Part shown: piece by piece, positions 5,831-59,620 of the stretch | Layout: every line of letters begins with the position of its first letter | Numbering within the stretch: position 1 is the first letter of the stretch | NCBI GenBank assembly: GCA_027011045.1 | Contig: JALVAT010000013.1 | Location: forward strand, 20,364-84,363 | Direction: 5' to 3' | DNA length: 64,000 nt | From: Candidatus Micrarchaeota archaeon | Lineage (GTDB): Archaea; Iainarchaeota; Iainarchaeia; JAADDC01 | Translations under genes and position numbers: made by a program | The notes under the pieces: model-generated | The model's database searches: none | Told to the model about the DNA's origin: nothing | Seen by the model: the letters and a program-made list of their open reading frames with translations, nothing else

Positions 5831-5856
5831 TTGGGAGGAATGCTTTAAATTCATGA

Positions 5857-5916: not shown

Positions 5917-5943
5917 TAAAAAGAGATATCTCACGTTTTTATT

Positions 5944-17705: not shown

Positions 17706-17814
17706 CCGGGGGTAGCTCAACCTGGTAGAGCGGCCGGCTGTAGTCTGGCTTGGGCCCAACCTGCAACAACAGGCAGAAACCGGCAGGTTGGGGGTTCAAA
17801 TCCCTCCCCCCGGA
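17706..17814 (+). tRNA. tRNA-Tyr(GTA): tRNA-Tyr (anticodon GTA) with 35-nt intron at the canonical 37/38 position (17744..17778)
   Basis: Acceptor CCGGGGG/CCCCCGG, anticodon stem GCCGG/CCGGC interrupted by a 35-nt insert after CUGUAG. Confidence 0.8.
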
Positions 17815-33700: not shown

Positions 33701-33775
33701 GTGGGGCCGCCCGGATTTGAACCGGGGACCTTCGCCGCGTGAAGGCGACGTCATGCCAGGCTAGACCACGGCCCC
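33701..33775 (-). tRNA. tRNA-Val(CAC): tRNA-Val (anticodon CAC)
   Basis: Acceptor GGGGCCG/CGGCCCC, anticodon stem UCGCC/GGCGA, loop UUCACGC. Confidence 0.85.
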
Positions 33776-33905
33776 AACCGCCATCCCGGTTGACATCGCA
33801 AGCTCCGCTTGCGTGCACGCGAACGGAGTTCGCGATGCGTGAGTGTGCATGGGGCTTGCAGCCCCATACTCAGCCGGTTGTGTGGTCGGTTGCTTGCAAC
33901 CGGCC
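33776..33905 (-). repeat. tRNA-flanking structured element, copy A (first 69 nt identical to copy B)
   Basis: ccaaccgccatcccggttgacatcgcaagctccgcttgcgtgcacgcgaacggagttcgcgatgcgtga is identical at 46118; contains a ~17-bp near-perfect hairpin centred on the palindrome gcgtgcacgc. Confidence 0.6.
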
Positions 33906-33998
33906 TCGCACAGCGCCGGCCAATGTGGCGGCCGCTCTACAGACCAGAGTGATTTATGGGGAGAGGAATTAAAAAACTACGAGTCTGGAAAGAACGTG

Positions 33999-34727
33999 GC
34001 CAGCTTTCTGAACGTACTTGTGGCAACGGTTATAGACAGCCTTGCGGGGCTCGTGGGGATATTCTCCCTCTACGTGAGTGAAGAAACCCTGAGAAAAATC
34101 GTTGAGTACATGGTGGCCTTCGCGGCAGGCGCAATGCTCGCGGGAGCGCTCGTACACCTGTTTCCAAAGGCGCTGAGCCTCTGGCCCCACGCACCCATCG
34201 TGGCAATCCTGGGGTTCGCCACGTTCTTCCTGCTCGAGCGAATCCTACACTGGCACCACTGCCATGAAACGGGTGTTTGCGAAGTCCATCCCGTCACAAC
34301 GCTGACGATCATTGGAGATGCGATCCACAACTTCATAGACGGTATTGTAATGGCCGCGAGCTTCCTCGTGGGTTCTGCAACAGGATGGATAACAACTGCC
34401 CTCGTCGTGGGACACGAGGTGCCCCAGGAGCTCGGAAACTTCTCGGTGCTCGTCTATGGCGGTTACGACAAGAAAAGGGCCATTGCATGGACATTCTTTT
34501 CCCAGGCCACGTGCATCCTTGGCGGTATTGTAGGGTGGTTCTTCATGCCCCTCTGGCTCAGGGGGCCGCTACTCGCGTTCGCCGCGGGCGGATTCCTCTA
34601 CATCGGTGCCTCTGACCTCGTTCCTGAGCTCCACAAGGAAAAGGACCTGAGAAAGAGCCTCAGATACTTTGGCCTCTTTCTCCTCGGCACCGCGTTCATG
34701 ATCGCAATAAAGGTGATCGCACATTGA
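33999..34727 (+). CDS. ZIP-family metal (zinc) transporter; GTG start
   Basis: HEVPQELG ZIP signature, multiple TM helices; GGGGAGAGGAA Shine-Dalgarno-like upstream. Confidence 0.7.
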   Translation, partial: ASFLNVLVATVIDSLAGLVGIFSLYVSEETLRKIVEYMVAFAAGAMLAGALVHLFPKALSLWPHAPIVAILGFATFFLLERILHWHHCHETGVCEVHPVTTLTIIGDAIHNFIDGIVMAASFLVGSATGWITTALVVGHEVPQELGNFSVLVYGGYDKKRAIAWTFFSQATCILGGIVGWFFMPLWLRGPLLAFAAGGFLYIGASDLVPELHKEKDLRKSLRYFGLFLLGTAFMIAIKVIAH

Positions 34728-35872
34728 TGCCCTTTGTAGAGGTAAACGAGCGCGCAGCCCGCGAGATAGAGCGAGGGGGGCTCCACGTATATGCGCAAAA
34801 CGTAAAGAAAGCCAAAGCAGACGACGGAGAATGGGTGGAGATCAGGTACGGGCAGAAGACCCTCGGATACGGCTTCTACAGCAAAAGGTCCTCGATACCC
34901 GTTAAACTATTTGCAAGGGAGGAAAAAGAGCCAAAAGAGGTAATTTGGGAGCGAATGGGATTTGCACATGGCTGGAAAAGCAGAATATACGGAGATGTAT
35001 ACCGCTGGATATTCGGAGAGGGCGATCTACTCCCGGGCCTTATTGTAGATAGGTACGGCGATGTAGCCGTTGTAAAGAACAACACCCTCGGGCTAGAAAG
35101 GTATTTAGACACGGTGGTGGAAGTTCTCTCGGACCACGGGGTGGAACACGTTCTACTCCGCGGAGAGGGTCAGGCACGACTAAGAGAAGGGCTCCCAAAG
35201 CGCGTGGAGTGGCTATTGGGGAGGAAGGACAGGACCATCATCGAAGAGGGGCATGCTAGGTTCATCGTGGACGTGTCCGGCGGGCAAAAGACGGGGTTCT
35301 ATTTGGACCAAAGGGAGAACAGAAAGGAGCTCGAGAGATACGTCGAAAGAGGGGATCGGGTTCTAGACGTGTTCGCATCAACGGGAGGATTTGGCATACA
35401 CGCGGCCGTAGCCGGCGCGTCCGTGGAATTCGTGGAGCTCGGAAAGCTGGCAACGGAGCTTATTGGGGAAAATCTGAAGCTAAACGGGGTTAAGGGCAGA
35501 ATCCGCCAGGGAGACGCCCTGGATATAATGAAGCGCCTCGCGGAAAAGGGTAAAAAATACGATGTCGTCGTTCTGGACCCACCAGCACTTGCGAAGGGAA
35601 AAGCAGACCTCAACAGGGCAAAAAAGATGTACTTCCGGATTAACGAGCTTGGAATCGGGCTTCTGAAGGAGGGCGGGCTACTCGTGACGTGCTCCTGCTC
35701 GCACCCTATCACGCCAAGGGAATTCCTGGGGATCGTGGAGGGGGCAGCGGAGAAGCACGGGAAAAACGTACAGATGCTTGGGGAGCTAAGGGGCCAGGCC
35801 CCAGATCACACGGTGTACCTCCCTCAGCCGGAAACGAAGTACCTGAAGTGCCTCTTTGCCCACATCATATAA
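34724..35872 (+). CDS. PUA-domain class I SAM-dependent RNA methyltransferase (RlmI/RlmK-like)
   Basis: N-terminal PUA-like region, central LDVFASTGGFG motif I, DPPA motif IV. Confidence 0.7.
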   Translation: MMPFVEVNERAAREIERGGLHVYAQNVKKAKADDGEWVEIRYGQKTLGYGFYSKRSSIPVKLFAREEKEPKEVIWERMGFAHGWKSRIYGDVYRWIFGEGDLLPGLIVDRYGDVAVVKNNTLGLERYLDTVVEVLSDHGVEHVLLRGEGQARLREGLPKRVEWLLGRKDRTIIEEGHARFIVDVSGGQKTGFYLDQRENRKELERYVERGDRVLDVFASTGGFGIHAAVAGASVEFVELGKLATELIGENLKLNGVKGRIRQGDALDIMKRLAEKGKKYDVVVLDPPALAKGKADLNRAKKMYFRINELGIGLLKEGGLLVTCSCSHPITPREFLGIVEGAAEKHGKNVQMLGELRGQAPDHTVYLPQPETKYLKCLFAHII

Positions 35873-35896
35873 AAACGCCCGCTTCGTATTACACCC

Positions 35897-36649
35897 ATGG
35901 GCCTGTTTGATAGGGCACGCGCATTCATAAGGGGGCTACGGGAAGGTGCAGAGATCGCAAACAGCCTCAATACAGTGGTGGCCATAGCACAGGAAGAGGG
36001 GATTGTAGACAAAATGCCCCAAGACCATGTTGACACATTCGTGGAGGCACACAGGCTGCTCAGGGACCACGAAAACAGGGATCAAATCATCCGGGAGCTC
36101 ATTAGAACCTACGCGCAGCACAAGAAGAGAAACAAGGAGGAAATTGTGGAACTCATGATGAAGCACCTCTCCAGGGCAACAAGGCGTGAGCACATCATCG
36201 CGCTCCACAGAACGCTTCGAACACTGGAGGAGCACAACGTGCCCCACGAACACAGGGCAAAAATCCTAAGGGCGATTCAGGATCCTGAAGACCTCGTGAA
36301 GGTTGCAAATGCTCTAGAAAAGCTTGAAAGAATGAACTTGAAGCACCTGCAGCCAGAGGCCCTCCTCGCAGCGATTAAATACGACAAACCAGGGGAGTTC
36401 CTGGAGCGCAGCGCCGGAGATGTTGAAATAGCAAGGAAGAAGATGTCCATGGCATTCAATAAGATATCCGAGCTAGAACCGGGGGAGTCTGGCCCGAACA
36501 GATATGAAATGCTGGCAATACTCGGAAAGGACTACAGATTGGCTAATGCAGAGGGCAAAAACGCCGAAAAAGAGTACATTGCAAGGGTGAGGGAGCTCTC
36601 CACAAACGGAGGGATAAGAAAGCTCGCTGAAAGGAGGTACGAGCTCTAA
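35897..36649 (+). CDS. Hypothetical alpha-helical protein
   Basis: ORF only. Confidence 0.4.
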   Translation: MGLFDRARAFIRGLREGAEIANSLNTVVAIAQEEGIVDKMPQDHVDTFVEAHRLLRDHENRDQIIRELIRTYAQHKKRNKEEIVELMMKHLSRATRREHIIALHRTLRTLEEHNVPHEHRAKILRAIQDPEDLVKVANALEKLERMNLKHLQPEALLAAIKYDKPGEFLERSAGDVEIARKKMSMAFNKISELEPGESGPNRYEMLAILGKDYRLANAEGKNAEKEYIARVRELSTNGGIRKLAERRYEL

Positions 36650-36716
36650 TAAAAGTCACTACCTGTCCCTGCGGCGGTAGAGGGACATATAAAAACAGTT
36701 CACCCCTCTTCCCATC

Positions 36717-37031
36717 ATGTACTTCGATAAAAACGCAATGAAGATGCTACAGCGCATGGGGCTAAAGGTAGAGGAGCTACAGGCAGAAGAAGTCGTAATA
36801 AAGCTAAAGGGGGGAAAGAAGCTCATTTTCGAAGCTCCTCAGGTGGTAAAAACCACAATGCAGGGGCAATCAGCGTTCCAAATAGTGGGAACGCCGCGGG
36901 TCGAGGAGGAGATACCCGAAGAGGACATAAAGCTCGTCATGGAAAAGACGGGAGCACCGAGAGAAGAAGTAGTACGCGTACTGAAGGAGGTAAAGGGAGA
37001 TATTGCGGAGGCGATAATGCGGCTCATGTAG
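36717..37031 (+). CDS. Nascent polypeptide-associated complex alpha subunit (NAC plus UBA)
   Basis: KKLIFEAPQV...GQSAFQIVG NAC domain and C-terminal UBA-like REEVVRVLKEVKGDIAEAIMRL; catataaaaac TATA about 30 nt upstream. Confidence 0.75.
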   Translation: MYFDKNAMKMLQRMGLKVEELQAEEVVIKLKGGKKLIFEAPQVVKTTMQGQSAFQIVGTPRVEEEIPEEDIKLVMEKTGAPREEVVRVLKEVKGDIAEAIMRLM

Positions 37032-37042
37032 TTGCGGGAACG

Positions 37043-37522
37043 CTAGCCGGTGCGCGGCCCTAGCACCTCCTGTGCCCGGGCGTAGACGTTGCCCATCTGA
37101 TCTATCGTCACCTCGTAGTAGATGGGGATAACGTCGCCTACGCGGTGATATGGGAGCACGTAGGCGTAGAGGTTCATATCCCTAACCGTACCGTCCAGGT
37201 TAACATTGGCTTCGACGATGGCATCCCTGTAAAAGAGACCCACATTGTCCTCCTTTAGGATCTGGAGCGTCTTGTTCACGTCCCCAACGGAAATGACAAC
37301 GTAACTACCGTTGCGCGAAACAACGTAAAGACCATTGGTATCCTGGGGAGATACGAGCACCCAATGCGTATCCACGAAGGAGCGGATCACGCCAAAGGTT
37401 TCTCCAGAATACGTGCCCGGTCTAACAGCGGTAGAGGGTACAGGAGAATACACAATGGCGGCGAGGGATGAAAGCGCGAGGAAAATGCCCACAGCCAAAA
37501 CAATGATTTTATTCCTTTCCAT
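37043..37522 (-). CDS. Hypothetical secreted / membrane-anchored protein
   Basis: N-terminal hydrophobic anchor; no family assigned. Confidence 0.4.
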   Translation of the reverse strand: MERNKIIVLAVGIFLALSSLAAIVYSPVPSTAVRPGTYSGETFGVIRSFVDTHWVLVSPQDTNGLYVVSRNGSYVVISVGDVNKTLQILKEDNVGLFYRDAIVEANVNLDGTVRDMNLYAYVLPYHRVGDVIPIYYEVTIDQMGNVYARAQEVLGPRTG

Positions 37523-37559
37523 GGTAGTATTCTTGGTTAAAACGTTTTAAGGTGGTTGT

Positions 37560-38201
37560 ATGGCAAGAGTTCTGCTCATCGCTTACGAAGGACGGGACAA
37601 GGAGACAGGCGAGGTTTTTGACCGCGTCGAGGAGGAGGAACCATATCCCGTCATACTCGGGGAGGATTCCCTTCTCCCTGGGCTTGCCGAGGCCCTAGAG
37701 GAGATGGGTGAGGGCGAGGAACGAGAGATCGAGCTCCCACCCGAAAAGGCATTCGGCGAGCGAAAGAAGGAACTCGTGGTGCTCATTCCACTCAAGGAGT
37801 TCAAGAAACGAGGAATAACCCCTGTTCCGGGCCTCGTCATAGAGGCCGATGGCCGCAAGGGAAGGGTGGTCTCCGTATCGGGAGGCAGAGTTCAGGTAGA
37901 CTTCAACCCCGAGCTTGCAGGCAGAACCGTTGTATACAAGGTCAAGGTGCTGGCAGAGCTCAAGGAAGTCAAGGAAGTGGCCGAGGCTCTCTTCCGCAGG
38001 TACTTCCGGACCAAGCTGGACAGCGTCGACTTCAAGGACGGCGTGCTCGAAGTGGTATATACGCCGACGAGCGCCAAGGACATTCAGCTCCAGAAGCTGC
38101 TCTTCGTGAGCACCATGCTCAAGGCGTTCCCAGAGATAAAGGAAGTGCGGATTGTGGAGCGCTACGTGCGCCGCGAGGAAAAGGAGAGCGAGGAGCAGTA
38201 A
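37560..38201 (+). CDS. FKBP-type peptidyl-prolyl cis-trans isomerase (long archaeal SlyD-like type)
   Basis: FKBP core with insert-in-flap, ~213 aa. Confidence 0.75.
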   Translation: MARVLLIAYEGRDKETGEVFDRVEEEEPYPVILGEDSLLPGLAEALEEMGEGEEREIELPPEKAFGERKKELVVLIPLKEFKKRGITPVPGLVIEADGRKGRVVSVSGGRVQVDFNPELAGRTVVYKVKVLAELKEVKEVAEALFRRYFRTKLDSVDFKDGVLEVVYTPTSAKDIQLQKLLFVSTMLKAFPEIKEVRIVERYVRREEKESEEQ

Positions 38202-38202
38202 A

Positions 38203-38260
38203 GGGTCAGGGGGTAACAGAGTCATCACGGCCTCAGCGAGGTCGTAGACTCATCATCCCC
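38203..38260 (-). ncRNA. C/D-box sRNA; D-guide complementary to 23S rRNA 59125..59136
   Basis: Minus strand: GGAUGAUGA, 13-nt guide, CUGA, ggcc, GUGAUGA, cucuguuacccc, CUGA; TTTATTTT TATA box 20-28 nt upstream. Confidence 0.75.
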
Positions 38261-38285
38261 CTCTTCTTTGAACCGATGAAAATAA

Positions 38286-38346
38286 AGGTCAGCTACCCCA
38301 GGGAGCATCATCGCCGCGCTCAGGGGTGCTGTCTCTCATCATCCCG
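38286..38346 (-). ncRNA. C/D-box sRNA (tandem with the previous one)
   Basis: Minus strand: GGAUGAUGA, 12-nt guide, CUGA, gcgcgg, CGAUGAUG, 12-nt guide, CUGA; cttttatg TATA-like about 22 nt upstream. Confidence 0.7.
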
Positions 38347-38375
38347 CTTCTAAGAAGGCAGAGGTGCATAAAAGC

Positions 38376-38630
38376 ATGGCGCGCTTAAGGGTGCGGGCAC
38401 ACCCCGGAGCAAAGCGAAACGAGATACGAGTAGAGGGAGATACGATCCACATCTGGGTAACAGCCCCCGCAAGGGAGGGTAAAGCAAACAGGGCGATCAT
38501 AGAGCTGCTCGCAAGGGAAATGGGGGTAAAGAAATCGGAAGTAAGCATCGTACGGGGCGAGCACGGGAGAGAAAAAATTATAGAAGTCCCCGACGACGCA
38601 GCCAGTCGTCTATTGGGCCGGACTGCTTGA
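38376..38630 (+). CDS. DUF167 / YggU-family small protein
   Basis: ~85 aa MARLRVRAHPGAKRNEIRVEGDTIHIWVTAPAREGKAN pattern. Confidence 0.55.
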   Translation: MARLRVRAHPGAKRNEIRVEGDTIHIWVTAPAREGKANRAIIELLAREMGVKKSEVSIVRGEHGREKIIEVPDDAASRLLGRTA

Positions 38631-39114
38631 TTATTTCCCCAAACCACGGCGTGTAGACCTCAGGGTGCTTTTTCACATCCTCTTTCACCCAGTCCCAGCG
38701 CACCCAGGCATATCCGTCCGCTTCCTCCGGATCCGGGCGCACGTCACCGTCGTACACCCCGACGAGAACGTGATCATACTCGTACTCCGTGAGGCCGTTG
38801 CCCAGGTCTGCCCTGTAAATGAAGGAGAAGATCTCCTCGAGTTCCGTGTCAAAGCCCATCTCCTCTCGAAGGCGACGGTGGGCCGCATCCACCACGGATT
38901 CGCCGGGCAGGGGATGGGAGCAGGTGGTATTTGTCCACAATCCGCCAGCGTGGTACTTCTTTCGGGCGCGGAGCTGAAGGAGAAACAGACCGTCAGGGTT
39001 GAAAACGAAGATCGAAAATGCCCTGTGGAGATGTCCGCCGTTCCTATGGGCTTCTATCTTCTCCATGGTGCCAATCTCACGATCCTGTTCGTCAACGAGT
39101 ACAACATCGACCAT
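38578..39114 (-). CDS. idi: Isopentenyl-diphosphate delta-isomerase, type 1 (Nudix fold)
   Basis: WTNTTCSHPLPGES and Nudix-box-like REEMGF, clearly alignable to bacterial Idi by eye. Confidence 0.7.
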   Translation of the reverse strand: MVDVVLVDEQDREIGTMEKIEAHRNGGHLHRAFSIFVFNPDGLFLLQLRARKKYHAGGLWTNTTCSHPLPGESVVDAAHRRLREEMGFDTELEEIFSFIYRADLGNGLTEYEYDHVLVGVYDGDVRPDPEEADGYAWVRWDWVKEDVKKHPEVYTPWFGEIIKQSGPIDDWLRRRGLL

Positions 39115-39144
39115 GAAAAGAAGGGGGAGGGGCAGAATAAAAAA

Positions 39145-39336
39145 TCACTCCTCGATCTTGATGGACTGTGTGGGGCATGACATGGCTGCGTTACGCACCT
39201 TCTCCTCGTCACCGGGGGCAACTTCCTCCTTAATAGCAACGGACTTTCCGTCAGAATCTATCTTGAAGTACTCCGGTGCGAGGGCAACACAGACACCACA
39301 GCCAATGCAGGTTTCCTTGTCGACGTGGACCTTCAT
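39145..39336 (-). CDS. Small 4Fe-4S ferredoxin
   Basis: 63 aa; CIGCGVC ... CP cluster ligands. Confidence 0.7.
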   Translation of the reverse strand: MKVHVDKETCIGCGVCVALAPEYFKIDSDGKSVAIKEEVAPGDEEKVRNAAMSCPTQSIKIEE

Positions 39337-39382
39337 GGTATCACCACTTTCAATTGGGGGCGGCGGATTTAAACCTATGGGA

Positions 39383-39802
39383 TCAAAGGTCGAGGAGCAC
39401 CTCGGCGTGCCAGCCAGAGGCGTCGCGCCAAACCCTAAAACCGTGCCAGGATATTGCCTTCACGTCGGCACGGGGATTGTGCTCCGGACGGACCCGCTCA
39501 CCGCAGGCGCGAACCAGGGCGATCAAGCTGCCACCCTCGCGGGACAGGGAGACGTCAAACCGGGAAAAAACGAGGGCATCTGCATCCTTGTAGACAAGGA
39601 GCTCCTCCAGAAAATTGTACAGAAGATCCTGCTCATCACGGCCCGAAACGGAGAACTCCACGCAATCCACGGGCCTAACAGCATCCAAATCAACCATCAC
39701 AGCGGTAAGAGCCCTGCCAGCATCGGAAAGAAGGGATTCGAGATCAGGGGCATCCACGCGGATAACGATATCGGCCACGTGATCCAGAAACCTGAAGGGC
39801 AT
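39383..39802 (-). CDS. Archease (RtcB tRNA-ligase cofactor family)
   Basis: MPFRFLDHVADIVIRV N-terminus (FxxHTAD-type motif), ~140 aa. Confidence 0.65.
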   Translation of the reverse strand: MPFRFLDHVADIVIRVDAPDLESLLSDAGRALTAVMVDLDAVRPVDCVEFSVSGRDEQDLLYNFLEELLVYKDADALVFSRFDVSLSREGGSLIALVRACGERVRPEHNPRADVKAISWHGFRVWRDASGWHAEVLLDL

Positions 39803-39833
39803 GCATAAAAGGAGCACGGGAGATGATAAAAGC

Positions 39834-40034
39834 ATGAAGATTCGCTGGAGGATCCTCGGCGCAGGATGGAATGAGGCTGAAACACAGGCAAAAACAGTAA
39901 AGGAGCTCATGGAGGAGCTAAAGCTGTCCTCAGAGGAGTACGTGGCTACAATCGGCAACAGGATCGTCACGGAGGACCACCCGATAAAAGAGGGGGATGA
40001 GATAACCTTCGTTCCGGTGGTATCCGGTGGCTAA
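39834..40034 (+). CDS. Small ubiquitin-like sulfur carrier (SAMP/TtuB/MoaD-ThiS fold) ending in Gly-Gly
   Basis: 66 aa ending ...ITFVPVVSGG immediately upstream of and overlapping the TtuA-like gene. Confidence 0.65.
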   Translation: MKIRWRILGAGWNEAETQAKTVKELMEELKLSSEEYVATIGNRIVTEDHPIKEGDEITFVPVVSGG

Positions 40035-40992
40035 GTGTTCCGTCTGTGGAAAACCAGCTGTATACGTGGCAAAGTACGAAGGAAAGGCGTACTGCGCAGA
40101 TCACTTCCTCAAGTGGTTCGACAAGCGCGTGCGGAAAACCATAAGGAAGTACAGGATGTTCGGGCCGAAGGAACACATAGTGGTGGCCGTTTCCGGCGGC
40201 AAGGACTCCCTCGCAGCACTCCACTACATGAGCAGGCTATCCAAGCGCGTTCCAGGGTGGACCGTCGAAGCCTTGCTCATAGACGAGGGGATTGAAGGGT
40301 ATAGACCCATCACGATCCGGGATTTCAAGCGCTGGGCAGAGGAATGGGGCGTATCGTACCGCATCGTGTCCTTCAAGGAAGAAATAGGGGCAAGCCTTGA
40401 CGAAATCATAAAGCTTGGCCTGGAAAAGGGCCTGCCGTATCAACCGTGCACATACTGCGGCGTCTTTCGAAGGTACCTCTTGAACAAGGCAGCTCGGGAA
40501 ATGGATGCCACGGTCCTCGTGACGGGGCACAACCTGGACGACGAGGTTCAAACATTCATGATGAACATCCTGCGCCACGATATGGATAGAATGTCGCGTC
40601 TGGGGCCAACAACGGACGCCGGAACGGAGTACTTCGTAAGGAGGGCAAAGATCTTCTACGAGATCCCCGAAAAGGAGATCGTAATATACTCCATGCTCCA
40701 CGGCTTCTTCCCCGAGTTTGTTGAATGTCCCTACGCGCGGCTGGGCTTCAGATGGGACGTTAGACACTACATAAACCTCCTGGAAGAGCGGTACCCGGGC
40801 ATAAAGTACAACATCCTCAAATCAGCGCTCGACGTATCCCAAGCGGTGAGGAAGACGCGGCCGCCCCAGCACCCCCAGCTCTGCAAGATCTGTGGAGAGC
40901 CGTCCAAGGGCCCGGTATGCCGCGCCTGCGAGCTGCGCATTATGCTGGGGCTCCTTGAGAAGCCAGACTGGTTCGAACTCCCGAAAAAATGA
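40027..40992 (+). CDS. ttuA: TtuA/NcsA-family tRNA 2-thiolation PP-loop ATPase with N- and C-terminal Zn fingers
   Basis: SGGKDS PP-loop; CSVCG...C..H and CKICG...CRAC zinc fingers; GHNLDD motif. Confidence 0.8.
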   Translation: MAKCSVCGKPAVYVAKYEGKAYCADHFLKWFDKRVRKTIRKYRMFGPKEHIVVAVSGGKDSLAALHYMSRLSKRVPGWTVEALLIDEGIEGYRPITIRDFKRWAEEWGVSYRIVSFKEEIGASLDEIIKLGLEKGLPYQPCTYCGVFRRYLLNKAAREMDATVLVTGHNLDDEVQTFMMNILRHDMDRMSRLGPTTDAGTEYFVRRAKIFYEIPEKEIVIYSMLHGFFPEFVECPYARLGFRWDVRHYINLLEERYPGIKYNILKSALDVSQAVRKTRPPQHPQLCKICGEPSKGPVCRACELRIMLGLLEKPDWFELPKK

Positions 40993-42193
40993 CCCGTTCC
41001 AGAATGCCAAGTACCTTGCGCGGCTCCGGACCCGCAACGGACACACGAAGCTTGGGTTCTGTGTTTGAAGGACGAACTAGCACCCAATGGCCGTCTACGC
41101 TGAGCTCAACCCCGTCGATCTCGGAGACGACTGGAAACGAGCTTCGCAAGCGCGACATCGCCGCACCTGGATCCGAAATGCGATAGGATTTCGTAACGTG
41201 GGGGATCCTCGGAATCTCCGGGCGAAGCACTTCGGTCTGAAGGGCAAGGAGCCCGAAGTATATGGGATCTGAGCTGTAGGAGAAATCATAGGCCGTAAAG
41301 TGGCCGGACATCTCCGCTGAGAAGCGAGCCCCAACATCAAGAGCCATGGAAACAATGTTACTCGTTCCAACGGGTGCCCGGTAAACGTTTTCCCCATTTG
41401 GGAGGAACATTGGGGGAATATCGATAGAGGCGACCACGGGACCTCCAAGAGCGCGGTAAAAGGCGTGCAACAATTGATACGACGGGATAACGCCCTGCTC
41501 ATCCACTATAACGACGCGATCCCCGTCTCCATCTGTGGCAATGGCCAAGTCCGCCGCACCGTTGCGCAGGAGATCCACTAAATCCGACACACGGTCGTGA
41601 GTTGGTTCCGGCCCCCTATCCGGAAACCCAGGGTGGATGTCTGGACGCACATGAACAACCCGCACAAAACGCCTCAACACATCGCCGTAAAGGGCACCAA
41701 CGCCGTTCCCTGAGTCTAAAAGAATTGATGCATCCGTTCGAGGAAAGCGGCGAGAAAGGGCATCTGCGTAAAGACCCCATGCATCCACACGGGCAAGCGT
41801 TCCCCCTTCCTTCCGATCAACAGCATCTAAGCTCCGCCAGAAGGACCTCATCTGATCCATAGAAAGCGGCAGGCCATCCCGTCCAAAGAGCTTGAACCCG
41901 TTATACTCGGGCGGGTTGTGGGATGCGGTTACCATAACAGCGGCATCTGTGGCAAGCCCCTTCGCCGCGTAGACAAGCACGGGGGTGGTAACCAGCCCCG
42001 CAGCAAGGGCGCTCCCGCCAGCATCTATAACGCCGTCGACAACCGCCCGGTAAAGGGATACGCTGCCCCTCCGGGCGTCGTGACCGACGATCACATTGCC
42101 AGCGCCGCCAACCCTCAGGCCAACCCTGTAGGCAAGCTCCTCATCTATGTCCTCGCCGTAGATTCCCCTGATATCATAGCCAACCCTCAGCAT
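40940..42193 (-). CDS. Phosphohexomutase (phosphoglucosamine mutase / phosphomannomutase family)
   Basis: Active-site TASHNPPEYNG and metal-binding DGDGDR. Confidence 0.8.
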   Translation of the reverse strand: MLRVGYDIRGIYGEDIDEELAYRVGLRVGGAGNVIVGHDARRGSVSLYRAVVDGVIDAGGSALAAGLVTTPVLVYAAKGLATDAAVMVTASHNPPEYNGFKLFGRDGLPLSMDQMRSFWRSLDAVDRKEGGTLARVDAWGLYADALSRRFPRTDASILLDSGNGVGALYGDVLRRFVRVVHVRPDIHPGFPDRGPEPTHDRVSDLVDLLRNGAADLAIATDGDGDRVVIVDEQGVIPSYQLLHAFYRALGGPVVASIDIPPMFLPNGENVYRAPVGTSNIVSMALDVGARFSAEMSGHFTAYDFSYSSDPIYFGLLALQTEVLRPEIPRIPHVTKSYRISDPGAAMSRLRSSFPVVSEIDGVELSVDGHWVLVRPSNTEPKLRVSVAGPEPRKVLGILERVIFSGVRTSLASQGAPA

Positions 42194-42281
42194 ACAAACC
42201 GCTCGCCCCCGGCGTTTAAAAGCGCTCCTTAAGCGGGCCCTTTAGGGAAAACCTCTTTTTGTTATTGCACCCAATGGATAC

Positions 42282-43937
42282 ATGAACGCGTTTCTTGACG
42301 TTAAAAGATACCTTGAAGAGCTCGCAAGGGAAAGCAACGCAGGGGTTCCTGTTCAGTATCCGCCAGAGGAAAAGATGGGGGATCTCGCACTTCCAGTTGG
42401 TTTTAAGCTCGCAAAGATCCTAAAAAAGAGCCCACAGGAGGCCGCAGCAGAATTTTCCAAGAAAATAGAGCACCCGCTCATAGAAAGGGTTGGTGTGGTG
42501 GGCGGGTACGTGAACGTGTTCCTCCGCAGGGCAGAGATTGCTAAGGACGTGCTGAAAAGGGCAGTAAGTGAGGACTACGGAAAGGAAAAGCCCACGGGGG
42601 AGCGCGTGGTCATAGACTACTCCTCCATCAACGTGGCGAAACCCATGCACGTGGGGCACCTCCGCTCCACGATCATCGGAGGATCGCTGAGAAGAATCTA
42701 CCGATTCAGAGGCGTAGAAGCTATCGGAATAAACTATCTCGGGGATATCGGAACGCAGTTCGGAAAGCTCATCGTCGCATACAAGAAATGGGTCGACGAG
42801 GATGCCCTTGAAAGAGAACCCATAAAGGAACTCCTCAGAATATACGTCAAATTCCACGAAGAAGCCGAAAAGAACCCAGATCTTGAGAGGGAGGCACGAG
42901 AGGCATATAAGAGGCTGGAAGAGGGGGACGAGGAGTACGTTCAGCTCTGGAAGCGCTTCAGGGAGCTCACTATCAAGTACGCAGAGAAAATATACAGGCT
43001 CCTGGGGGTGGAGTTTGACGAAATCAGCGGAGAGTCGTTCTACGTGGAGAAGGCAAGAGAACTGGCGGAAACGCTCCTGAAGATGGGAATAGCCGAGAGA
43101 GATCCGGAAACGGGGGCAATACTTGTCGATTTTGGAAATCTCGGCAAGGATATCATCCTGAAGTCCGACGGAACAACTCTTTACCTTTCCAGGGATCTCG
43201 CAGCCCTCCTGGACCGCGTAGAGCGCTACAACCCCAAAAAGCTCGTATACGTCGTTGGCTCGGAGCAGAGTGACCACTTCAGAAAGCTATTCTGGCTGGC
43301 AAGAAAGCTCGGGGTGGACAGAGAGCTCGTGCACGTGTCCTTCGGTCTCATAAACCTCCCAGAGGGAAAAATGTCCACAAGGAAGGGGCGCGTCATTTTC
43401 CTGGAGGACGTGCTGAACAAGGCAATCGCCCTTGCAGGGGAAGAAATGAGAAAGAGGGGCACATACAACGAAGAGGACGCGAGAAAAATAGGGGTAGGCG
43501 CCCTCAACTACGCGATACTCAAGGTGGAGCCGGAGAAAAACATCACGTTCCAGTGGTCAAGGGTGCTCTCCTTCGAGGGCGACACCGGGCCGTATCTGCA
43601 GTACTCGGCGGTCAGGGCCAGGAAAATACTTGAAAAGGCGGGAGATTGGGAATTCAAGGCAGCAGACACGGTGAACGATGACGAATGGCGATTAATAAAG
43701 CTGATAGCAAGGTTCCCAGAGACGTTGAGCGACGTTATGGCAAAGGACAGGCCCCACATCCTCGCCAGATACGCCTACGATCTTGCAAGGACGTTCCACA
43801 GCTTCTACGACAGAAATCCCGTCCTGCAGTCCGACGAACCCACAAGATCCTTCAGGATTGGCATTGTCAAGGCGTTCTACAACGTGCTCTCGAGGTCACT
43901 AAACCTGCTGCTCATAGACGTGCCGGAGAGGATGTAA
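42282..43937 (+). CDS. argS: Arginyl-tRNA synthetase
   Basis: 551 aa; class I aaRS with HVGH HIGH-variant and C-terminal anticodon-binding domain. Confidence 0.9.
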   Translation: MNAFLDVKRYLEELARESNAGVPVQYPPEEKMGDLALPVGFKLAKILKKSPQEAAAEFSKKIEHPLIERVGVVGGYVNVFLRRAEIAKDVLKRAVSEDYGKEKPTGERVVIDYSSINVAKPMHVGHLRSTIIGGSLRRIYRFRGVEAIGINYLGDIGTQFGKLIVAYKKWVDEDALEREPIKELLRIYVKFHEEAEKNPDLEREAREAYKRLEEGDEEYVQLWKRFRELTIKYAEKIYRLLGVEFDEISGESFYVEKARELAETLLKMGIAERDPETGAILVDFGNLGKDIILKSDGTTLYLSRDLAALLDRVERYNPKKLVYVVGSEQSDHFRKLFWLARKLGVDRELVHVSFGLINLPEGKMSTRKGRVIFLEDVLNKAIALAGEEMRKRGTYNEEDARKIGVGALNYAILKVEPEKNITFQWSRVLSFEGDTGPYLQYSAVRARKILEKAGDWEFKAADTVNDDEWRLIKLIARFPETLSDVMAKDRPHILARYAYDLARTFHSFYDRNPVLQSDEPTRSFRIGIVKAFYNVLSRSLNLLLIDVPERM

Positions 43938-44830
43938 TGGCAAAGAGCATAGAGGAGCGAGTCCTTGGACTAATACGGGGGCAACGTCTCGTCAAGCGCG
44001 GCGACAGGGTAATGGTGGCCGTCTCCGGGGGCAAGGATAGCAGCACAACGGCGTGGATCTTGGCGAAGCACGCCGAAGACCTCGGGATAAAGGTAGCCCT
44101 GCTCCACCTCTATCAGGGGATCCCCAGATACTCCGACAACGCCCTAAAGGACGTCAAAAAGCTTGCTGATAAGCTAAAGGTGCCGCTCTACGTTCACCAC
44201 TGGGAAGACGAATGGGGAATGGGGCTGCCGGGCATCGTCGGCCGTATGAGAAAGGCGTCCTGCTACATCTGCGGCATCCTGAAGAGGTATTACCAGAATG
44301 TACTGCCCCTCGAAATGGGGTATAACGTGGTGGCCACGGGACACAACCTGGATGACGCCGTGGGATTTACCATAAACAACCTCATAACGGGCCAGTTTGA
44401 GTACATAGCTCGCCTCTCCCCCGTGCTGCCAGAAAGCGAGCTCACGCCGAGAAAGATAAAACCGCTCTTCTGGATACAGGAGAAGGAAATCCTCGCCTTT
44501 GCGGAGGAGAATAACATCCCGTTCTCCCGCTGCCAGTGTCCCTTCCAGCAGCTCGCCCCTACGTACCACATACGGCGCGCCTTTGACGTTGTGGAGGAGA
44601 GGCGCCCGGGAACAAGAAAGGCCTTCGTAAAGAACGTGATGCGGCTCGTGGAAAGGGCAAAGGTAGCGCCAGAGGAATCGAAGCCCAACAAATGCAAGTA
44701 CTGTGGAGCCCCAACGCGCGGGAAGGTATGCGCGGTCTGTAAGATGAAGATAAGGCTCGGGATAAAGCCAGAGCGCCCAAGGATCCAAAAGGAGCACGTC
44801 TACGTGCCCGAGGGAGCAGAGGGTATTTAA
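43937..44830 (+). CDS. Second PP-loop tRNA-thiolation paralogue (NcsA/Ncs6/Ctu1-like); ATG overlaps argS stop (TAATG)
   Basis: SGGKDS PP-loop, GHNLDD, C-terminal CKYCG...CAVC. Confidence 0.7.
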   Translation: MAKSIEERVLGLIRGQRLVKRGDRVMVAVSGGKDSSTTAWILAKHAEDLGIKVALLHLYQGIPRYSDNALKDVKKLADKLKVPLYVHHWEDEWGMGLPGIVGRMRKASCYICGILKRYYQNVLPLEMGYNVVATGHNLDDAVGFTINNLITGQFEYIARLSPVLPESELTPRKIKPLFWIQEKEILAFAEENNIPFSRCQCPFQQLAPTYHIRRAFDVVEERRPGTRKAFVKNVMRLVERAKVAPEESKPNKCKYCGAPTRGKVCAVCKMKIRLGIKPERPRIQKEHVYVPEGAEGI

Positions 44831-44852
44831 TCCAGTACTGCGATATACTAGC

Positions 44853-46085
44853 GTGGTAAGCATCGAAGAGATCACGCACAGGTATCCGGGCTTCGAGCGG
44901 GGCTACCGGCGGGGTAGGGAAGAGGCTGCCCTCCTCCACGACAGCGAGCAGGACATCAGGCAGATTCTCACCACACTCAAGGAAGTGAACGATCAAGAAA
45001 AGTACGTGCCGCCAGCAGTTGCAGAATACCTTAAGCAGCTCGAGGGCGTGCCGCTCAGCGAAGAGGCCCTGCGAGAATACGGGACATCCAACGCGGGAGA
45101 AGCACTGGGGTATATCGTAGGACACGCTGTAGGGCTTTTGGGAAAGAAGGGTCTGAAGCACGCAAAAAACATCCTGATGAGCATCACCGCACTACCCCCC
45201 GAAGCAGCCGCGAGAATTCTGGAAGAGCACATACTCCCCCTGGTCAAGACCCCAAGATACCTCTTGGGGGAAGCGCGCAGAGAACACCGGGATCCAAGAA
45301 TAGATCGTGCCCTGCGCGCGATTACGCGGATAAGAAAGAAGGCCGCAATACGCACCACAGCAAGGCACCTGCAAGAAGTATACGCCGCCACAGGAGGCAA
45401 GCTACACCAGCTTGAACGGGCAAAGAAGGATATTTCAGCAGCGAGAGCCTCCCTCGAGCAGGGGAGCACAGCCGCCGCGAAAAAGGCGATACAGTCAAGG
45501 ATCGAAGCAATTAGAAGCCGGGAGGATCTGCGAGAGTATCAGAAAACCAGGGCAATTGAGCGATACCAACGAATCATGGAAGCCATCGACAGGGGCAGCC
45601 ACCAGGCAGCCGTTGCAGAGTTAAAGCGCATAGAGAAGGCAATTGACCACGACATTTCGATCCTGAGCAAAAACGGGGACCGCTACAGCAGAAGCTCAAT
45701 GCGACACATGGGAAAGACAGCCGCCCTGAGCATAGGCCGCAGCGAGTTCGACGTAGAAGACTATACACGGGTGAAACACCTGGCAGAATCCGATGTGGAA
45801 CTCATAAAACTTATAGAGAATTCTCTGGATGAAATGGACGCCGAGATCGGACACGCAAACAGATTGTCACACTACCTGCGCGATGAAAGGATCTTGAAAA
45901 ATCTGGCAAAGCTCCACGGGATATACTGGATGATGCGCGACGAGAATGGGCTGAGAGTGCTCAAGGAAACAATAGGGGAACTTGCAAAGGGCAACAGCAC
46001 AGTCGCCGAAAGATTACGTGAACAGTACAAAAATACCCGTGAGCTAGAAGAAGCAGTCCGTTCAGTCGTAGAGCCAAGGGAATAA
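44853..46085 (+). CDS. Hypothetical alpha-helical protein
   Basis: ORF only. Confidence 0.4.
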   Translation: MVSIEEITHRYPGFERGYRRGREEAALLHDSEQDIRQILTTLKEVNDQEKYVPPAVAEYLKQLEGVPLSEEALREYGTSNAGEALGYIVGHAVGLLGKKGLKHAKNILMSITALPPEAAARILEEHILPLVKTPRYLLGEARREHRDPRIDRALRAITRIRKKAAIRTTARHLQEVYAATGGKLHQLERAKKDISAARASLEQGSTAAAKKAIQSRIEAIRSREDLREYQKTRAIERYQRIMEAIDRGSHQAAVAELKRIEKAIDHDISILSKNGDRYSRSSMRHMGKTAALSIGRSEFDVEDYTRVKHLAESDVELIKLIENSLDEMDAEIGHANRLSHYLRDERILKNLAKLHGIYWMMRDENGLRVLKETIGELAKGNSTVAERLREQYKNTRELEEAVRSVVEPRE

Positions 46086-46097
46086 AACGTGTGGAAA

Positions 46098-46112
46098 AAG
46101 CCGCGGGCGGGA
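46098..46112 (-). repeat. Duplicate of the last 15 nt of tRNA-Thr (acceptor 3' strand plus T-stem), followed on the minus strand by TTTTT
   Basis: agccgcgggcgggat is identical to 46322..46336 of the intact tRNA-Thr gene 208 bp away. Confidence 0.55.
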
Positions 46113-46117
46113 TCCAA

Positions 46118-46262
46118 ACCAACCGCCATCCCGGTTGACATCGCAAGCTCCGCTTGCGTGCACGCGAACGGAGTTCGCGATGCGTGACGCTAACTGGGGA
46201 TCTGCGATCCCCAATTATGCACCGGACGTGTAGTCGGTTGCTTGCAAAAGGTGTGCGCGGTG
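46118..46262 (-). repeat. tRNA-flanking structured element, copy B
   Basis: First 69 nt identical to copy A; distal part shares gctaactg, a hairpin, caattatgc and ggttgc with copy C. Confidence 0.6.
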
Positions 46263-46322
46263 GCCAGAAACTGCGATAGTAAAGCTCGGCAGCAGTAAGA
46301 ACAGGCCATAATTAAGAAGAAG

Positions 46323-46396
46323 AGCCGCGGGCGGGATTTGAACCCGCGACCTGCCGCTTACAAGGCGGCCGCTCTACCGGACTGAGCTACCGCGGC
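46323..46396 (-). tRNA. tRNA-Thr(TGT): tRNA-Thr (anticodon TGT)
   Basis: Acceptor GCCGCGG/CCGCGGC, anticodon stem GCCGC/GCGGC, loop CUUGUAA. Confidence 0.85.
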
Positions 46397-46439: not shown

Positions 46440-48668
46440 TTAGCCGAAGTAGTCGGGCTCGTGCTTCTTGCGCTTCACCAGCTTCTTGATGACCTTCTGG
46501 GAGAGCGCCTTCGCCATGGCCTCGTAGAGTAGAACCGTGTCCTTATCCAGCGAGGGGCCCACCACAGCCATTGCCTTCCTGAAATCCTCCATGGTAACCG
46601 CTGTGGGCTCCAGGTTGTTCCTGCGAAGCGCGTTAAGAGCAGCCTCACGTACAAGGGCTTCTAGATCCGCTCCCGTGTAAAACTCCGTCTCCTTGGCGAT
46701 CTCCGCAAGATCCACATCATCCGCGAGCGGCACGTTGCGCGTGTGCACCTTCAAAATCTCAAGACGCGCCTTCTCATCGGGTGGCGGCACGTAGATGATC
46801 CTGTCGAAGCGCCCGGGCCTGAGAAGGGAGGGGTCCAGGATATCGGGCCTATTTGTGGCTGCGATGACGACCACGTCCTTCAGTTCTGAGATACCGTCCA
46901 TCTCGGTTAGCAGCTGGTTCACAACACGGTCCGTAACGTGCGTAACATCCGTACCCCTCATGCCCGCAATGGCATCGATCTCATCAATGAATACAACACA
47001 AGGAGCCGCCTGTCTGGCCTTCTGGAAGATTTCTCGTATCGCACGCTCGCTTTCGCCCACCCACTTGCTCAGGATCTCAGGGCCCTTAACGGAGATAAAG
47101 TTAGCCTCGGACTCCGTGGCAACAGCCTTCGCCAGGAGGGTCTTGCCCGTTCCAGGTGGACCGTAGAGGAGTATGCCGCGTGGGGGACGTATGCCCATCT
47201 TCTCAAAGGCTTCCCTGCGCTTCAACGGCAGCTCTACAGCCTCGCGCAGCTTCTCCTTTACCTCTTCAAGGCCGCCAACATCCTCCCAGTGAACCGATGG
47301 AACCTCCACGAACACCTCGCGGAGAGCGGAGGGCTTTACCTCCTTGAGCGCAGCCTCGAAGTCCTTTCGGGTAACCTTTAGCTGCTCCAGGACCTCCGGG
47401 GGGATTTCCTCCTCATCGAGATCTATCTTGGGCAGGATACGGCGGATCGCCTTCATAGCAGCCTCCTTGACGAGAGCTGCCAGATCTGCACCCACAAAGC
47501 CGTGCGTTACCTCGGCCAACCAGTCCACATCCACATCCTCGGCAAGGGGCACATTCCTCAAGTGTATCTGAAGGATTTCCTTTCTCGCGTTCTTATCGGG
47601 AACGGGGAGCTCAATTTCCCTGTCGAAGCGCCCAGGACGGCGAAGCGCGGGGTCTATCGCGTTGGGCCTGTTTGTAGCAGCAATGACGACAACGTTGCCG
47701 CGACTCTCCATGCCATCGAGGAGCGTAAGGAGCTGGGCAACAACGCGCCGCTCCACCTCGCCCAAAACATCCTCGCGCTTGGGCGCAATGGCGTCGATCT
47801 CATCGATGAAGATGATTGCAGGGGCATTCTCCTGGGCCTCCTCGAAGACCTTCCTGAGCCGCTCCTCCGCCTCACCCACGAACTTGCTCATGATCTCCGG
47901 CCCGTTAATGGCTATAAAGTAGGCGTTGGCCTCGTTGGCAACCGCCTTCGCCAGGAGGGTCTTGCCCGTGCCGGGTGGGCCGTAGAGCAGCACGCCCTTG
48001 GGCGGTTCGATACCCAGACGGTTGAATATTTCCGGGTGTCTCAATGGGAGCTCGACCATCTCCCGGATCTTCTGGATCTGATCCCTGAGACCCCCAATAT
48101 CATCGTATGTGATGTTGGGGACGTTGCTCGTCTTCACGGGCTTGTCCATCACCACAAGCTGCGTCTTGGGCCCTACCCGCACCACACCGGTGGGCTTAGT
48201 GGATACCACAACGTATATGCTCTTGCGGAAGAAGGGAACGAGTACCTTGTCGCCCTTCACAAAGGGCCTGCCCAAAAGATGCTTCTTCAGGTATCCCTCG
48301 TAGCCACGGAGAATAACCTCGTTCTCTGACGCCGGGGCGAGCACAATCTTTTCAGCATCCTTCCATTTTGCCGGACGGACAACCACCTTGTCTCCAATGG
48401 ACACGCCGGCATTGTTGCGTATTATAGAGTCCATATGGATGACATTCTGGCCCCTCTCCTCCGCAGGGGACGGCCAAACGATGGCTGCGGTCTTCCGGCT
48501 GCCCTCTATCTCAACTATATCTCCAGAGGTCAACCCGAGACGGTTCTTTACGTCAAGATCTATGGCAACGATTCCCCTGCCGACGTGGGACGGCAGCGCC
48601 TCCAGAACGCGAAGAACAGCCTCATTCTTGTCCTTTCCTGCCAGGTCCGCCCCGGCCGATTCCGCCAT
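46440..48668 (-). CDS. Cdc48/VCP-like AAA+ ATPase (two AAA domains)
   Basis: 742 aa; N domain plus two Walker A GPPGTGKT blocks. Confidence 0.9.

Positions 48669-56576: not shown

Positions 56577-59620
<3,044 letters not shown>

Follow-up and report, generated by a model that had tools for sequence, protein, structure and literature searches.

The window analyzed here, a 64,000-nt stretch of contig JALVAT010000013.1, contains three homologous, hairpin-rich elements (A, B and C), each of which adjoins a tRNA feature when read on the minus strand. We consider it probable that these elements are selfish, non-autonomous mobile DNA, that is, small lineage-specific insertions that colonize tRNA genes, and the family is best read as a miniature counterpart of the tRNA-targeting integrase islands. 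A small mobile or recombination module that targets tRNA genes was among the explanations offered by the original prediction, which was made from the letters of the window, and it finds support in empty orthologous sites, in many copies at different tRNAs, in both orientations of insertion, and in duplicated tRNA segments. The family is previously undescribed, and we found no description of an archaeal tRNA-targeting miniature inverted-repeat transposable element (MITE) in the literature.

Copies in the window

The claim that three structured elements of common descent adjoin tRNA genes holds, with the third (C) being diverged, and the 69-nt block reported as identical at two tRNA sites is an exact direct repeat (33774–33842 and 46119–46187). 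Exactly three matches to the 18-mer CARCCGGGATGGYGGYTG lie in the window, all on the minus strand (5704–5721, 33775–33792 and 46120–46137), against a chance expectation of ~0.36 matches, and none of 100 shuffles gave three; TTGCAAGCAACCGACYACAC is found in A and B only. Shuffled sequences fold far less well than the three regions (z scores of −3.1 to −4.9). Since an independent ENA assembly agrees exactly with the window over 12,063 nt, copy C included, and a Logan assembly is identical to it over 5,667 nt, the elements are not assembly artefacts. In a second Logan contig the 410-aa gene, the tRNA fragment and element B adjoin each other just as in the window, up to a break inside the repeat.

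The element extents (Table 1) are longer than those first proposed. The placement of each element immediately 5′ of a tRNA or of a tRNA 3′ fragment applies to A and C, but B lies downstream of the intact tRNA-Thr and is upstream of a displaced fragment only. This fragment is 21 nt long, 15 of which are identical to the intact gene, and its mismatches occur only at the T-loop end beside B. The mutated T-loop (TTTGGATCCCGC, 46107–46118) equals 12 nt of the anticodon loop and 3′ stem of tRNA-Gln(ttg) (16183–16194), a match that may be fortuitous or may record a former stay of the element at tRNA-Gln.

Two other interpretations of this region were rejected. A 12.3-kb integrated element (33843–46118) between the 69-nt repeats does not agree with the genes found there (Zip, methyltransferase, FKBP, Nudix, TtuA, PGM and ArgRS), which are housekeeping genes and syntenic in relatives. 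A split or permuted tRNA at B does not agree with the fragment itself, in which neither the T stem nor the acceptor stem has its 5′ strand and the T-loop is mutated.

Empty and filled sites in relatives

The orthologous sites are empty in relatives, which identifies the elements as insertions. The order Zip, TATA box (TTTTTTAATT), tRNA-Val and TruD is the same in three related loci (L001, L002 and L004), where the tRNA follows ~27 nt after the TATA box; in the window the TATA box is kept, and ~175 extra nt precede the tRNA. At the 5′ site of tRNA-Glu there is no element in L252 and L254 (TATA box 35–45 nt upstream) versus ~110 extra nt in the window, and L253, whose HD protein is 95% identical, has a different family member at this site, where its contig breaks. 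Locus L140 has an element at the 3′ end of tRNA-Arg(cct), where L002 and L004 have none, and an insert at tRNA-Ser(tga), where L004 has none.

The tRNA-Thr gene has the window insertion on its 3′ side. In the sister genome L134 this gene has no B-like element, and a 117-nt inverted relative lies on its 5′ side, ending in CAACCGATATGGCGGTTG and flanked by an exact 14-nt duplication (GGTGCCGCGGTAGC) that covers leader position −3 to tRNA position +11. We also observe an insertion of ~105 nt 3′ of the L134 tRNA-Thr (11545–11694), ending in AAGAACTTGGCC and followed by a diverged fragment that runs from the T-loop to the 3′ end (TTCAGATTCCGCCCGCGCTTCC); family members lie on both flanks of this gene. 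The sister genomes that lack the element at the same tRNA genes have 84–88% protein identity. In the window together with the loci that have the same element variants, ~12 elements are found among 18 tRNA genes, which amounts to a burst within a single lineage; in those more distant relatives that were sampled, most of these genes have no element.

Copies at other tRNA genes

At least 16 further copies occur in related contigs from metagenomes and metagenome-assembled genomes (MAGs), each at a tRNA gene. They are located in L134, L137, L140 (two), L148 (two), L160 (three), L161, L174 (two), L247 (two), L253 and L254. A widened 24-mer scan of metagenome contigs gave 7 true loci and ~110 chance matches among the matches listed, and more copies were added by nhmmer and by direct reading of related loci. 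In viral contigs, CARCCGGGATGGYGGYTG has 8 matches, all of them chance matches in bacterial coding DNA, and in genome contigs at least 119 bacterial chance matches are among those listed. Two more specific scans of the viral contigs for element motifs gave only chance matches in phage genes, and element A found nothing by blastn against plasmids and phages.

The arrangements are varied. The L160 array opens with one TATA box and a long element; tRNA-Pro(tgg) comes next, then a second element ahead of tRNA-Val(tac) and tRNA-Arg(cct), and then a third element, which lies at the 5′ end of an intron-containing tRNA (1693–1803). In L174, tRNA-Ser(cga) and 12 nt of trailer precede a 65-nt element and then an exact 34-nt repeat, which begins at the T-loop and extends into the trailer. 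The next L174 element has the 44-nt palindrome described below and is fused to tRNA-Arg(tcg). Two tandem elements stand before tRNA-Ala in L148. Locus L247 has two cases, the first consisting of tRNA-Phe, a 66-nt element and a ~21-nt copy of the tRNA-Phe 3′ end, and the second of a TATA box, a 14-nt 5′ fragment of tRNA-Met, the left half of a long element, and the intact tRNA-Met. A 97-nt insert lies between exact 36-nt repeats 3′ of tRNA-Glu in L254, and the tRNA-Ser(tga) insert of L140 is 81 nt long, with a B-type hairpin 1, the terminal hairpin GGCCAGAGAATCTGGCC and an exact 23-nt repeat from the T-loop. Finally, L137, L140 and L161 have three near-identical 135-nt inverted copies at tRNA-Lys, tRNA-Arg(cct) and tRNA-Pro(cgg), respectively, with the terminal hairpin two bases from the discriminator. 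The family therefore occurs in both orientations relative to the tRNA; the copies of the window species are all tRNA-sense and lie inside tRNA transcription units.

Junctions and displaced tRNA fragments

An intact tRNA is kept in every case, and the mature tRNA is uninterrupted. The flanking duplications are exact in L174 (34 nt), L254 (36 nt), L140 (23 nt) and L134 (14 nt), and are imperfect or shorter for window B, for L247-Phe and for a second window insertion, 3′ of tRNA-Glu (12 nt plus a diverged T-loop). All six fragments on the 3′ side start at the T-loop and run to the tRNA 3′ end plus 0–20 nt of trailer. Fragments on the 5′ side, where present, end in the D-loop region (positions 11–14). 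At the remaining junctions the terminal hairpin either joins tRNA position 1 exactly or stands two bases past the discriminator. Mismatches between the fragment and the resident tRNA cluster at the element-proximal T-loop end (B, L254 and the tRNA-Glu 3′ insertion), as is expected if that end comes from an att-like sequence of the element itself. In addition, the inserts after tRNA-Thr in the window and tRNA-Ser in L140 resemble each other in their first letters, which are T-rich and terminator-like.

The left junction of A is a special case. Here GTAGAGCGGCCGCC (33927–33940) matches the D-arm/anticodon-stem region of tRNA-Thr (46364–46377; also 17724–17736) and not that of tRNA-Val. This match suggests a displaced or transduced piece of another tRNA that may have travelled with the element.

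Modules and folding

Toward the junction, the core of an element consists of hairpin 1, the spacer GTCACG, an optional 44-nt palindrome, and a terminal hairpin that faces the junction. Hairpin 1 is either of A-type (GAGTATGGGG...CCCCATGCAC) or of B-type (GCATAATTG...CAGTTAGC), and the terminal hairpin is either an M-end, whose stem covaries (CAACC/GGTTG versus CAGCC/GGCTG), or a Y-end. The Y-end hairpin terminates the insertions 3′ of tRNA-Glu in the window (there GGCCAGAGAATTTGGCC, 5529–5545, which adjoins a T-loop-like piece), at tRNA-Ser in L140, and 3′ of tRNA-Thr in L134; since it is found with a B-type hairpin 1 as well as in the tRNA-Glu 3′ insertion, both end types belong to one superfamily. 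The long forms have in addition the palindrome CGGTTGCAAGCAACCG and an inverted terminal hairpin at the far end, which gives them imperfect inverted termini. In A, the first L160 element and L247-Met, this left hairpin is M-end-like (CAACCGCCACATCGGCCG in L160 and CGACCGCCGTATCGGTCG in L247), with 10–15 of 18 positions identical and compensatory changes in the stem, and the forms of 65–81 nt do not have one. Overall the family ranges from ~65 to ~200 nt and is non-coding.

Each of the two hairpin-1 types is found both with and without the 44-nt palindrome, so that all four combinations exist. The palindrome is strand-symmetric and present in 4 of ~20 copies; what had been taken for a hairpin block deleted from C is instead an insertion in a minority of the family. 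The 69-nt block shared by A and B is identical in L160 also, that is, beside three different tRNAs, which points to module sharing or gene conversion within the family and not to local duplication.

In an alignment of seven B-type cores, hairpin 1 and the terminal hairpin have 92.9% of their cells paired and six pairs changed on both sides, a level reached by none of 500 shuffles, with slid controls at no more than 52% paired; these counts are from B-type copies only because MAFFT placed the two types of hairpin 1 out of register. In 12 of 13 cores the element strand gives a better fold than its complement does (24 G·U pairs versus 4), and the loop and spacer sequences GGGATGG and GTCACG are conserved. 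Such one-strand, G·U-tolerant folding fits selection for a compact, harmless RNA, but it may alternatively be due to a single-stranded DNA intermediate or an RNA function.

The last of these would make the family a functional RNA module, either a structured pre-tRNA leader or trailer with a regulatory or chaperone role in maturation, or a small RNA that RNase P or RNase Z cuts out of tRNA co-transcripts, with its spread being due to selection. We judge this improbable. The strand-specific, G·U-rich folding, the compensatory stem changes, the conserved loop and spacer, the 69-nt block identical in several copies, and the sense placement of all window-species copies inside tRNA transcription units are in its favor, but the same tRNA genes do without the element in the sister genomes, the 95%-identical relative has a different variant at the same site, related genomes have copies antisense to the tRNA, and indels and module swaps are frequent. 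There is also no Rfam match, and no K-turn, C/D or H/ACA box was seen by eye, no motif search having been run. The earlier impression that this is not a described RNA family stands: at the gathering score the Rfam matches in the window are tRNA and rRNA only, at a relaxed E-value over A, B, C and five related loci nothing on the elements rises above noise, and, with respect to C/D or H/ACA guide small RNAs (sRNAs), no Rfam snoRNA model falls on the elements.

Possible routes of spread

If the elements are mobile, insertion would occur by recombination at conserved tRNA loops, catalyzed by a recombinase encoded elsewhere and acting in trans. The likeliest candidate would be a tyrosine integrase that targets tRNA genes and is encoded by a viral or plasmid genome of this lineage, and the repeated CAACCG/CGGTTG hexamers together with the terminal hairpin are putative binding sites. 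Copies may then homogenize and shuffle modules by mutual recombination, which would explain the 69-nt identity of A and B. We hold the general reading of mobile DNA more firmly than this identification of the agent; a tyrosine integrase acting in trans is a tentative proposal.

A number of observations weigh against the reading of mobile DNA, or against its integrase version. Neither an integrase nor a transposase is present among the window open reading frames (ORFs) tested or in the Pfam-annotated syntenic loci, no recombinase gene was found near the copies, and no autonomous parent or insertion sequence (IS) with matching ends was found in ~250 kb of related sequence or in viral, plasmid and phage collections. 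The inserts, of 65–200 bp and without an ORF, do not suit a simple integrase model, and a free circle of 100–250 bp would be an awkward substrate for a tyrosine integrase. Most copies of the 5′ type (C, L160 and the second L174 element) have no displaced 5′ fragment, and two duplications (L174 and L254) reach 12 and 20 nt, respectively, into non-conserved trailer at 100% identity, which fits a duplicative mechanism (staggered-cut or copy-choice) better than recombination between attP and attB. Orientation is not random within a subfamily, the GGGATGG/GAGATGG copies being all sense and the GATATGG copies all antisense, and the G·U asymmetry could mean that the element RNA itself has a function. 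The restriction to tRNA genes, moreover, describes roughly 20 copies and not a whole-genome census.

Several of these features would be accounted for if the family had spread with no dedicated enzyme, by ectopic gene conversion or by replication template switching between tRNA genes, with shared tRNA sequences (the T-loop GGTTCRAATCC, or the 5′ acceptor/D-arm) as anchors on one side and microhomology such as GGTTG on the other. Fusions of the M-end to G1 without a fragment are explained in this way (tRNA-Val(cac), tRNA-Val(tac) and tRNA-Pro(tgg) all begin GGGGCCGTGGT), as are the constant T-loop start of the 3′ fragments, the mismatches at their element-proximal ends (B, L254 and the tRNA-Glu 3′ insertion), the variable duplication lengths with trailer included, and the foreign tRNA-like piece at the left end of A; that no recombinase gene was found also agrees. 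However, the conserved terminal hairpins, the inverted ends of the long forms and the repeated CAACCG hexamers are left unexplained, and such a process would hardly yield inverted insertions with clean 14-nt duplications (L134) or near-identical copies exactly two bases past three discriminators (L137, L140 and L161). We give this route an outside chance.

Less probable still is a classical MITE moved by a transposase that makes long, variable target duplications and prefers tRNA genes. Duplications of this type are known from the IS1634/IS1549 group of the IS4 family. The family is multi-copy and non-coding, its long forms have imperfect terminal inverted hairpins (in A, 33917–33934 versus 33775–33792; also L160 and L247), and direct duplications of host sequence, which may take in non-conserved trailer, flank the insertions. 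On the other hand, the short forms (65–81 nt) lack the left inverted repeat, the duplications vary between 0 and 36 nt in length, the right junction is always the T-loop or G1 and not a random target position, and no transposase was seen.

It is also conceivable, at about the same low level as spread without an enzyme, that the family represents a new class of archaeal mobile element that recognizes tRNA loop architecture. Geneless elements of this kind would insert at the boundaries of the mature tRNA, or within the gene with a self-repairing duplication, perhaps via a single-stranded DNA or RNA intermediate, as the strand-specific, G·U-tolerant hairpins hint, and would use a host or viral enzyme not yet tied to transposition. 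Element RNA released by RNase P or RNase Z might aid mobility or tRNA-gene regulation.

Comparison with known systems

Integrase islands are mapped by a regenerated tRNA and a displaced fragment, with crossovers at the T loop, the T/acceptor junction or the anticodon loop, and 5′ fragments are the rarer class in tyrosine-integrase islands (PMC4383910). The present family resembles such islands (Islander-type, and the archaeal SSV and pNOB8 types) in its tRNA target, the regenerated gene and the displaced fragment at the far end. A regenerated tRNA with a direct displaced fragment is found for window B, the tRNA-Glu 3′ insertion, L174, L254, L140, L134 and L247 (two), the crossover sublocation agrees in that all six 3′-side fragments start at the T-loop, and in both systems 3′ fragments begin at the T-loop or T/acceptor junction and 5′ fragments are rarer (PMC4383910). 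The T-rich, terminator-like stretch after the regenerated tRNA-Thr and tRNA-Ser belongs to the insert. The family differs from the islands in its size of 65–200 bp, in having no gene and hence no integrase (no tyrosine integrase lies within any insertion), in its many fragment-free copies at tRNA position 1, in the duplications that include trailer, and in the presence of near-identical elements at many tRNA species.

Cis-mobilizable elements (CIMEs) are att-bounded, integrase-less derivatives of integrative elements that are mobilized in trans; those known are kilobases long, bacterial, and descended from identified integrative and conjugative elements. The family is like them in its non-autonomy, its att-like bounding repeats and the presumed trans-acting recombinase, but it is smaller by one to two orders of magnitude and has no known parent element. 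With prokaryotic MITEs and the repetitive extragenic palindromic (REP) and bacterial interspersed mosaic element (BIME) repeats it has in common that it is short, non-coding, multi-copy and hairpin-rich, with imperfect inverted termini in the long forms and frequent (here presumed) co-transcription with neighboring genes. It differs from these in its strict link to tRNA genes, in junctions at defined tRNA positions, in having no known partner IS, and in duplications that are long, variable (12–36 nt) and gene-regenerating in place of a short, fixed target duplication; counting the fragment-free junctions, the lengths observed are 0, 12, 14, 21, 23, 34 and 36 nt. The family consequently falls under the definition neither of an island, there being no integrase, nor of a MITE, there being no fixed duplication.

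Short structured sequences reportedly occur at several positions of many archaeal tRNA genes, in the form of the transposed tRNA introns of Thermoproteales and the leaders of split tRNAs described by Fujishima and colleagues. The Thermoproteales introns lie inside the region coding for the mature tRNA and are removed at bulge-helix-bulge motifs. They are like the present family in their implied movement between tRNA genes, but the latter lies outside an uninterrupted mature tRNA, and the adjacent tRNAs are called as uninterrupted. A casposon derivative would be recognized by a 14–15-bp duplication, inverted repeats and Cas1; two duplications are 14–15 nt long (L134 and the identical part of B), the others are 23–36 nt, and no cas1 was seen. 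Palindrome-associated transposable elements (PATEs) derived from IS200/IS605 would have subterminal hairpins and insert 3′ of a fixed tetra- or pentanucleotide without duplicating the target. Here strand-specific hairpins are present, but the duplications are long and there is no common target oligonucleotide beyond tRNA features.

Transcription and promoters

Because A and C lie between a TATA box and a tRNA, and the L160 and L174 elements lie in polycistronic tRNA units, the elements are presumably transcribed, and RNase P or RNase Z would then cut them off. The tRNA-Val and tRNA-Glu transcripts would have structured leaders of ~85–165 nt, depending on the start site, to be removed by RNase P, and B would be part of the tRNA-Thr 3′ trailer, to be removed by RNase Z. 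The long structured 5′ leader of the original prediction is thus acceptable as a consequence of insertion for A and C, but not as an explanation of the family.

The other tRNA genes of the window (Gln, Thr, Ser and an intron-containing one) have an A/T-rich, TATA-like box ~25–45 nt upstream, and neither tRNA-Val nor tRNA-Glu has one so placed. The intron-containing gene (17706–17814, plus strand; 56 bits in Rfam, missed by ARAGORN) has a normal TATA box and no element. Between tRNA-Val and the divergent Zip gene, which is essentially leaderless (GTG start at 33997), there is a single A/T-rich box, AATTAAAAAA / TTTTTTAATT (33967–33997). Judging from its conservation in L001, L002 and L004, this box probably serves Zip and tRNA-Val as a bidirectional promoter.

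It was also proposed that the elements act as a promoter module for tRNA genes in which CATAATT is the TATA box, or as a protein operator centered on the GCGTGCACGC palindrome. Both are very improbable, although the distance from CATAATT down to the element end is ~50 nt in C and ~95 nt in B, and the 44-nt block forms a palindrome that is nearly perfect. CATAATT pairs with CAGTTAG, as the 5′ side of a hairpin that covaries, and is missing from A-type copies, A itself included. The TATA boxes upstream of A and C match those of element-free relatives and are the genuine, ancestral ones, which makes CATAATT dispensable as a promoter; an archaeal BRE/TATA (B recognition element) module would have a TATA box ~25 nt upstream of the transcription start in every member. 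In addition, B, the first L174 element, L247 and L140 are downstream of their tRNA, and some relatives are antisense to it; the palindrome that would form the operator is present in just 4 of ~20 copies.

Implications

If the elements are indeed parasitic, more than half of the sampled tRNA genes of this lineage carry a structured insert in or beside the transcription unit, several of them between promoter and tRNA, and RNase P and RNase Z would routinely handle leaders and trailers of up to ~200 structured nt. Invaded tRNA genes that are kept intact would amount to a natural experiment on why tRNA genes attract mobile DNA, with a bearing on the origin of disrupted, split or intron-bearing archaeal tRNA genes, and the elements may define minimal tRNA-specific recombination sites that work at high temperature. 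For annotation, the elements cause assembly breaks, with contigs ending inside them, and the tRNA fragments that they make would be misread by island-finding programs.

Table 1. Positions of elements, modules and neighboring tRNA features in the window
Feature	Position	Strand	Remarks
Element A, long form; whole insertion between ancestral TATA box/leader and tRNA-Val	~33776–33949	−	From empty-site comparison
tRNA-Val(cac), downstream neighbor of A	33701–33775	−	End of A meets G1
M-end terminal hairpin of A (CAACCGGGATGGCGGTTG); last G doubles as tRNA-Val G1	33775–33792	−	
Optional 44-nt palindrome of A	33794–33837	−	Same module in B and L160; one mismatch in L174
Hairpin 1 of A, A-type (GAGTATGGGGCTGCAAGCCCCATGCAC)	33845–33871	−	L160 1641–1667 identical
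Palindrome of A (CGGTTGCAAGCAACCG); re-uses M-end hexamers CAACCG/CGGTTG	33885–33902	−	Also in L160, L247, L254
Left-end hairpin of A (CGGCCGCCACATTGGCCG); inverted, M-end-like, imperfect terminal inverted repeat	33917–33934	−	
tRNA D-arm-like fragment (CTCTGGTCTGTAGAG), left junction of A; with the next 8 nt, has GTAGAGCGGCCGCC in common with tRNA-Thr	33935–33949	−	
Ancestral TATA box of tRNA-Val, common to divergent Zip gene	33967–33976	−	Now ~190 nt from tRNA; kept in L001, L002, L004
Element B; whole insertion between intact tRNA-Thr and displaced 3′ fragment	46120–46321	−	
M-end of B	46120–46137	−	
44-nt palindrome of B	46139–46182	−	
Hairpin 1 of B, B-type	46189–46220	−	
TTGCAAGCAACCGAC of B	46233–46247	−	
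T-rich, terminator-like start of B (CTTCTTCTTAATT)		−	
Displaced copy of tRNA-Thr 3′ end (GTTTGGATCCCGCCCGCGGCT versus genuine GTTCAAATCCCGCCCGCGGCT), then TTTTT terminator	46099–46119	−	
tRNA-Thr(tgt), intact (regenerated)	46322–46396	−	
Element C; insertion between TATA box/leader and tRNA-Glu	~5706–5816	−	Without 44-nt palindrome
M-end of C	5704–5721	−	
Hairpin 1 of C, B-type	5729–5760	−	
Extra A-type-like hairpin of C	5787–5814	−	
tRNA-Glu(ttc)	5629–5705	−	C ends at its 5′ end
TATA box of tRNA-Glu, upstream of C	5843–5850	−	Kept in L252, L253, L254
Second related insertion, Y-end subtype, 3′ of tRNA-Glu	5519–5627	−	Site empty in L252
Displaced copy of tRNA-Glu 3′ end (GGCCGGAGCATA), then diverged T-loop	5507–5518	−	GGCCGGAGCATA also at 5628–5639

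Host and other features of the window

The host is an uncultured archaeon, recorded in metagenomes and MAGs only. The proteins closest to its TruD and HD-domain proteins are likewise from MAGs, and submitters gave a few of these MAGs the label ‘Candidatus Diapherotrites’. A reverse gyrase gene (8508–12017, plus strand, 1169 aa), also annotated in the syntenic loci L252, L253 and L257, indicates that the host is presumably a hyperthermophile. Look-ups of ArgRS, P0124 and the ORF at 62248–63378 gave no match on record.

A candidate C/D box sRNA (5858–5917, minus strand) lies just upstream of the tRNA-Glu TATA box and outside element C, with the boxes ATGATGA...CTGA...GATGATGA...CTGA. Several archaeal C/D models match it below threshold, the best being sR2 (28 bits, E = 2.5e-4). 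It is conserved in L252, L253 and L254, with two tandem copies in L252, and related repeats are found in the window at 38289–38355 and 56225–56252. Directly downstream of tRNA-His in L174, the region 4237–4402 (plus strand) has sub-threshold matches to the H/ACA models HgcF (27 bits) and Pab91 (29 bits), and it possibly marks a tRNA-linked H/ACA sRNA.

The 23S rRNA gene (56607–59598) is preceded by tRNA-Ser(tga) (56059–56144) and not by 16S rRNA or tRNA-Ala, and there is no 16S rRNA gene within the window; the 16S and 23S genes appear to be unlinked. Finally, a 125-nt direct repeat with 81% identity (47053–47177 and 47872–47996) lies inside the CDC48 gene and corresponds to its two AAA domains, an ordinary internal duplication.

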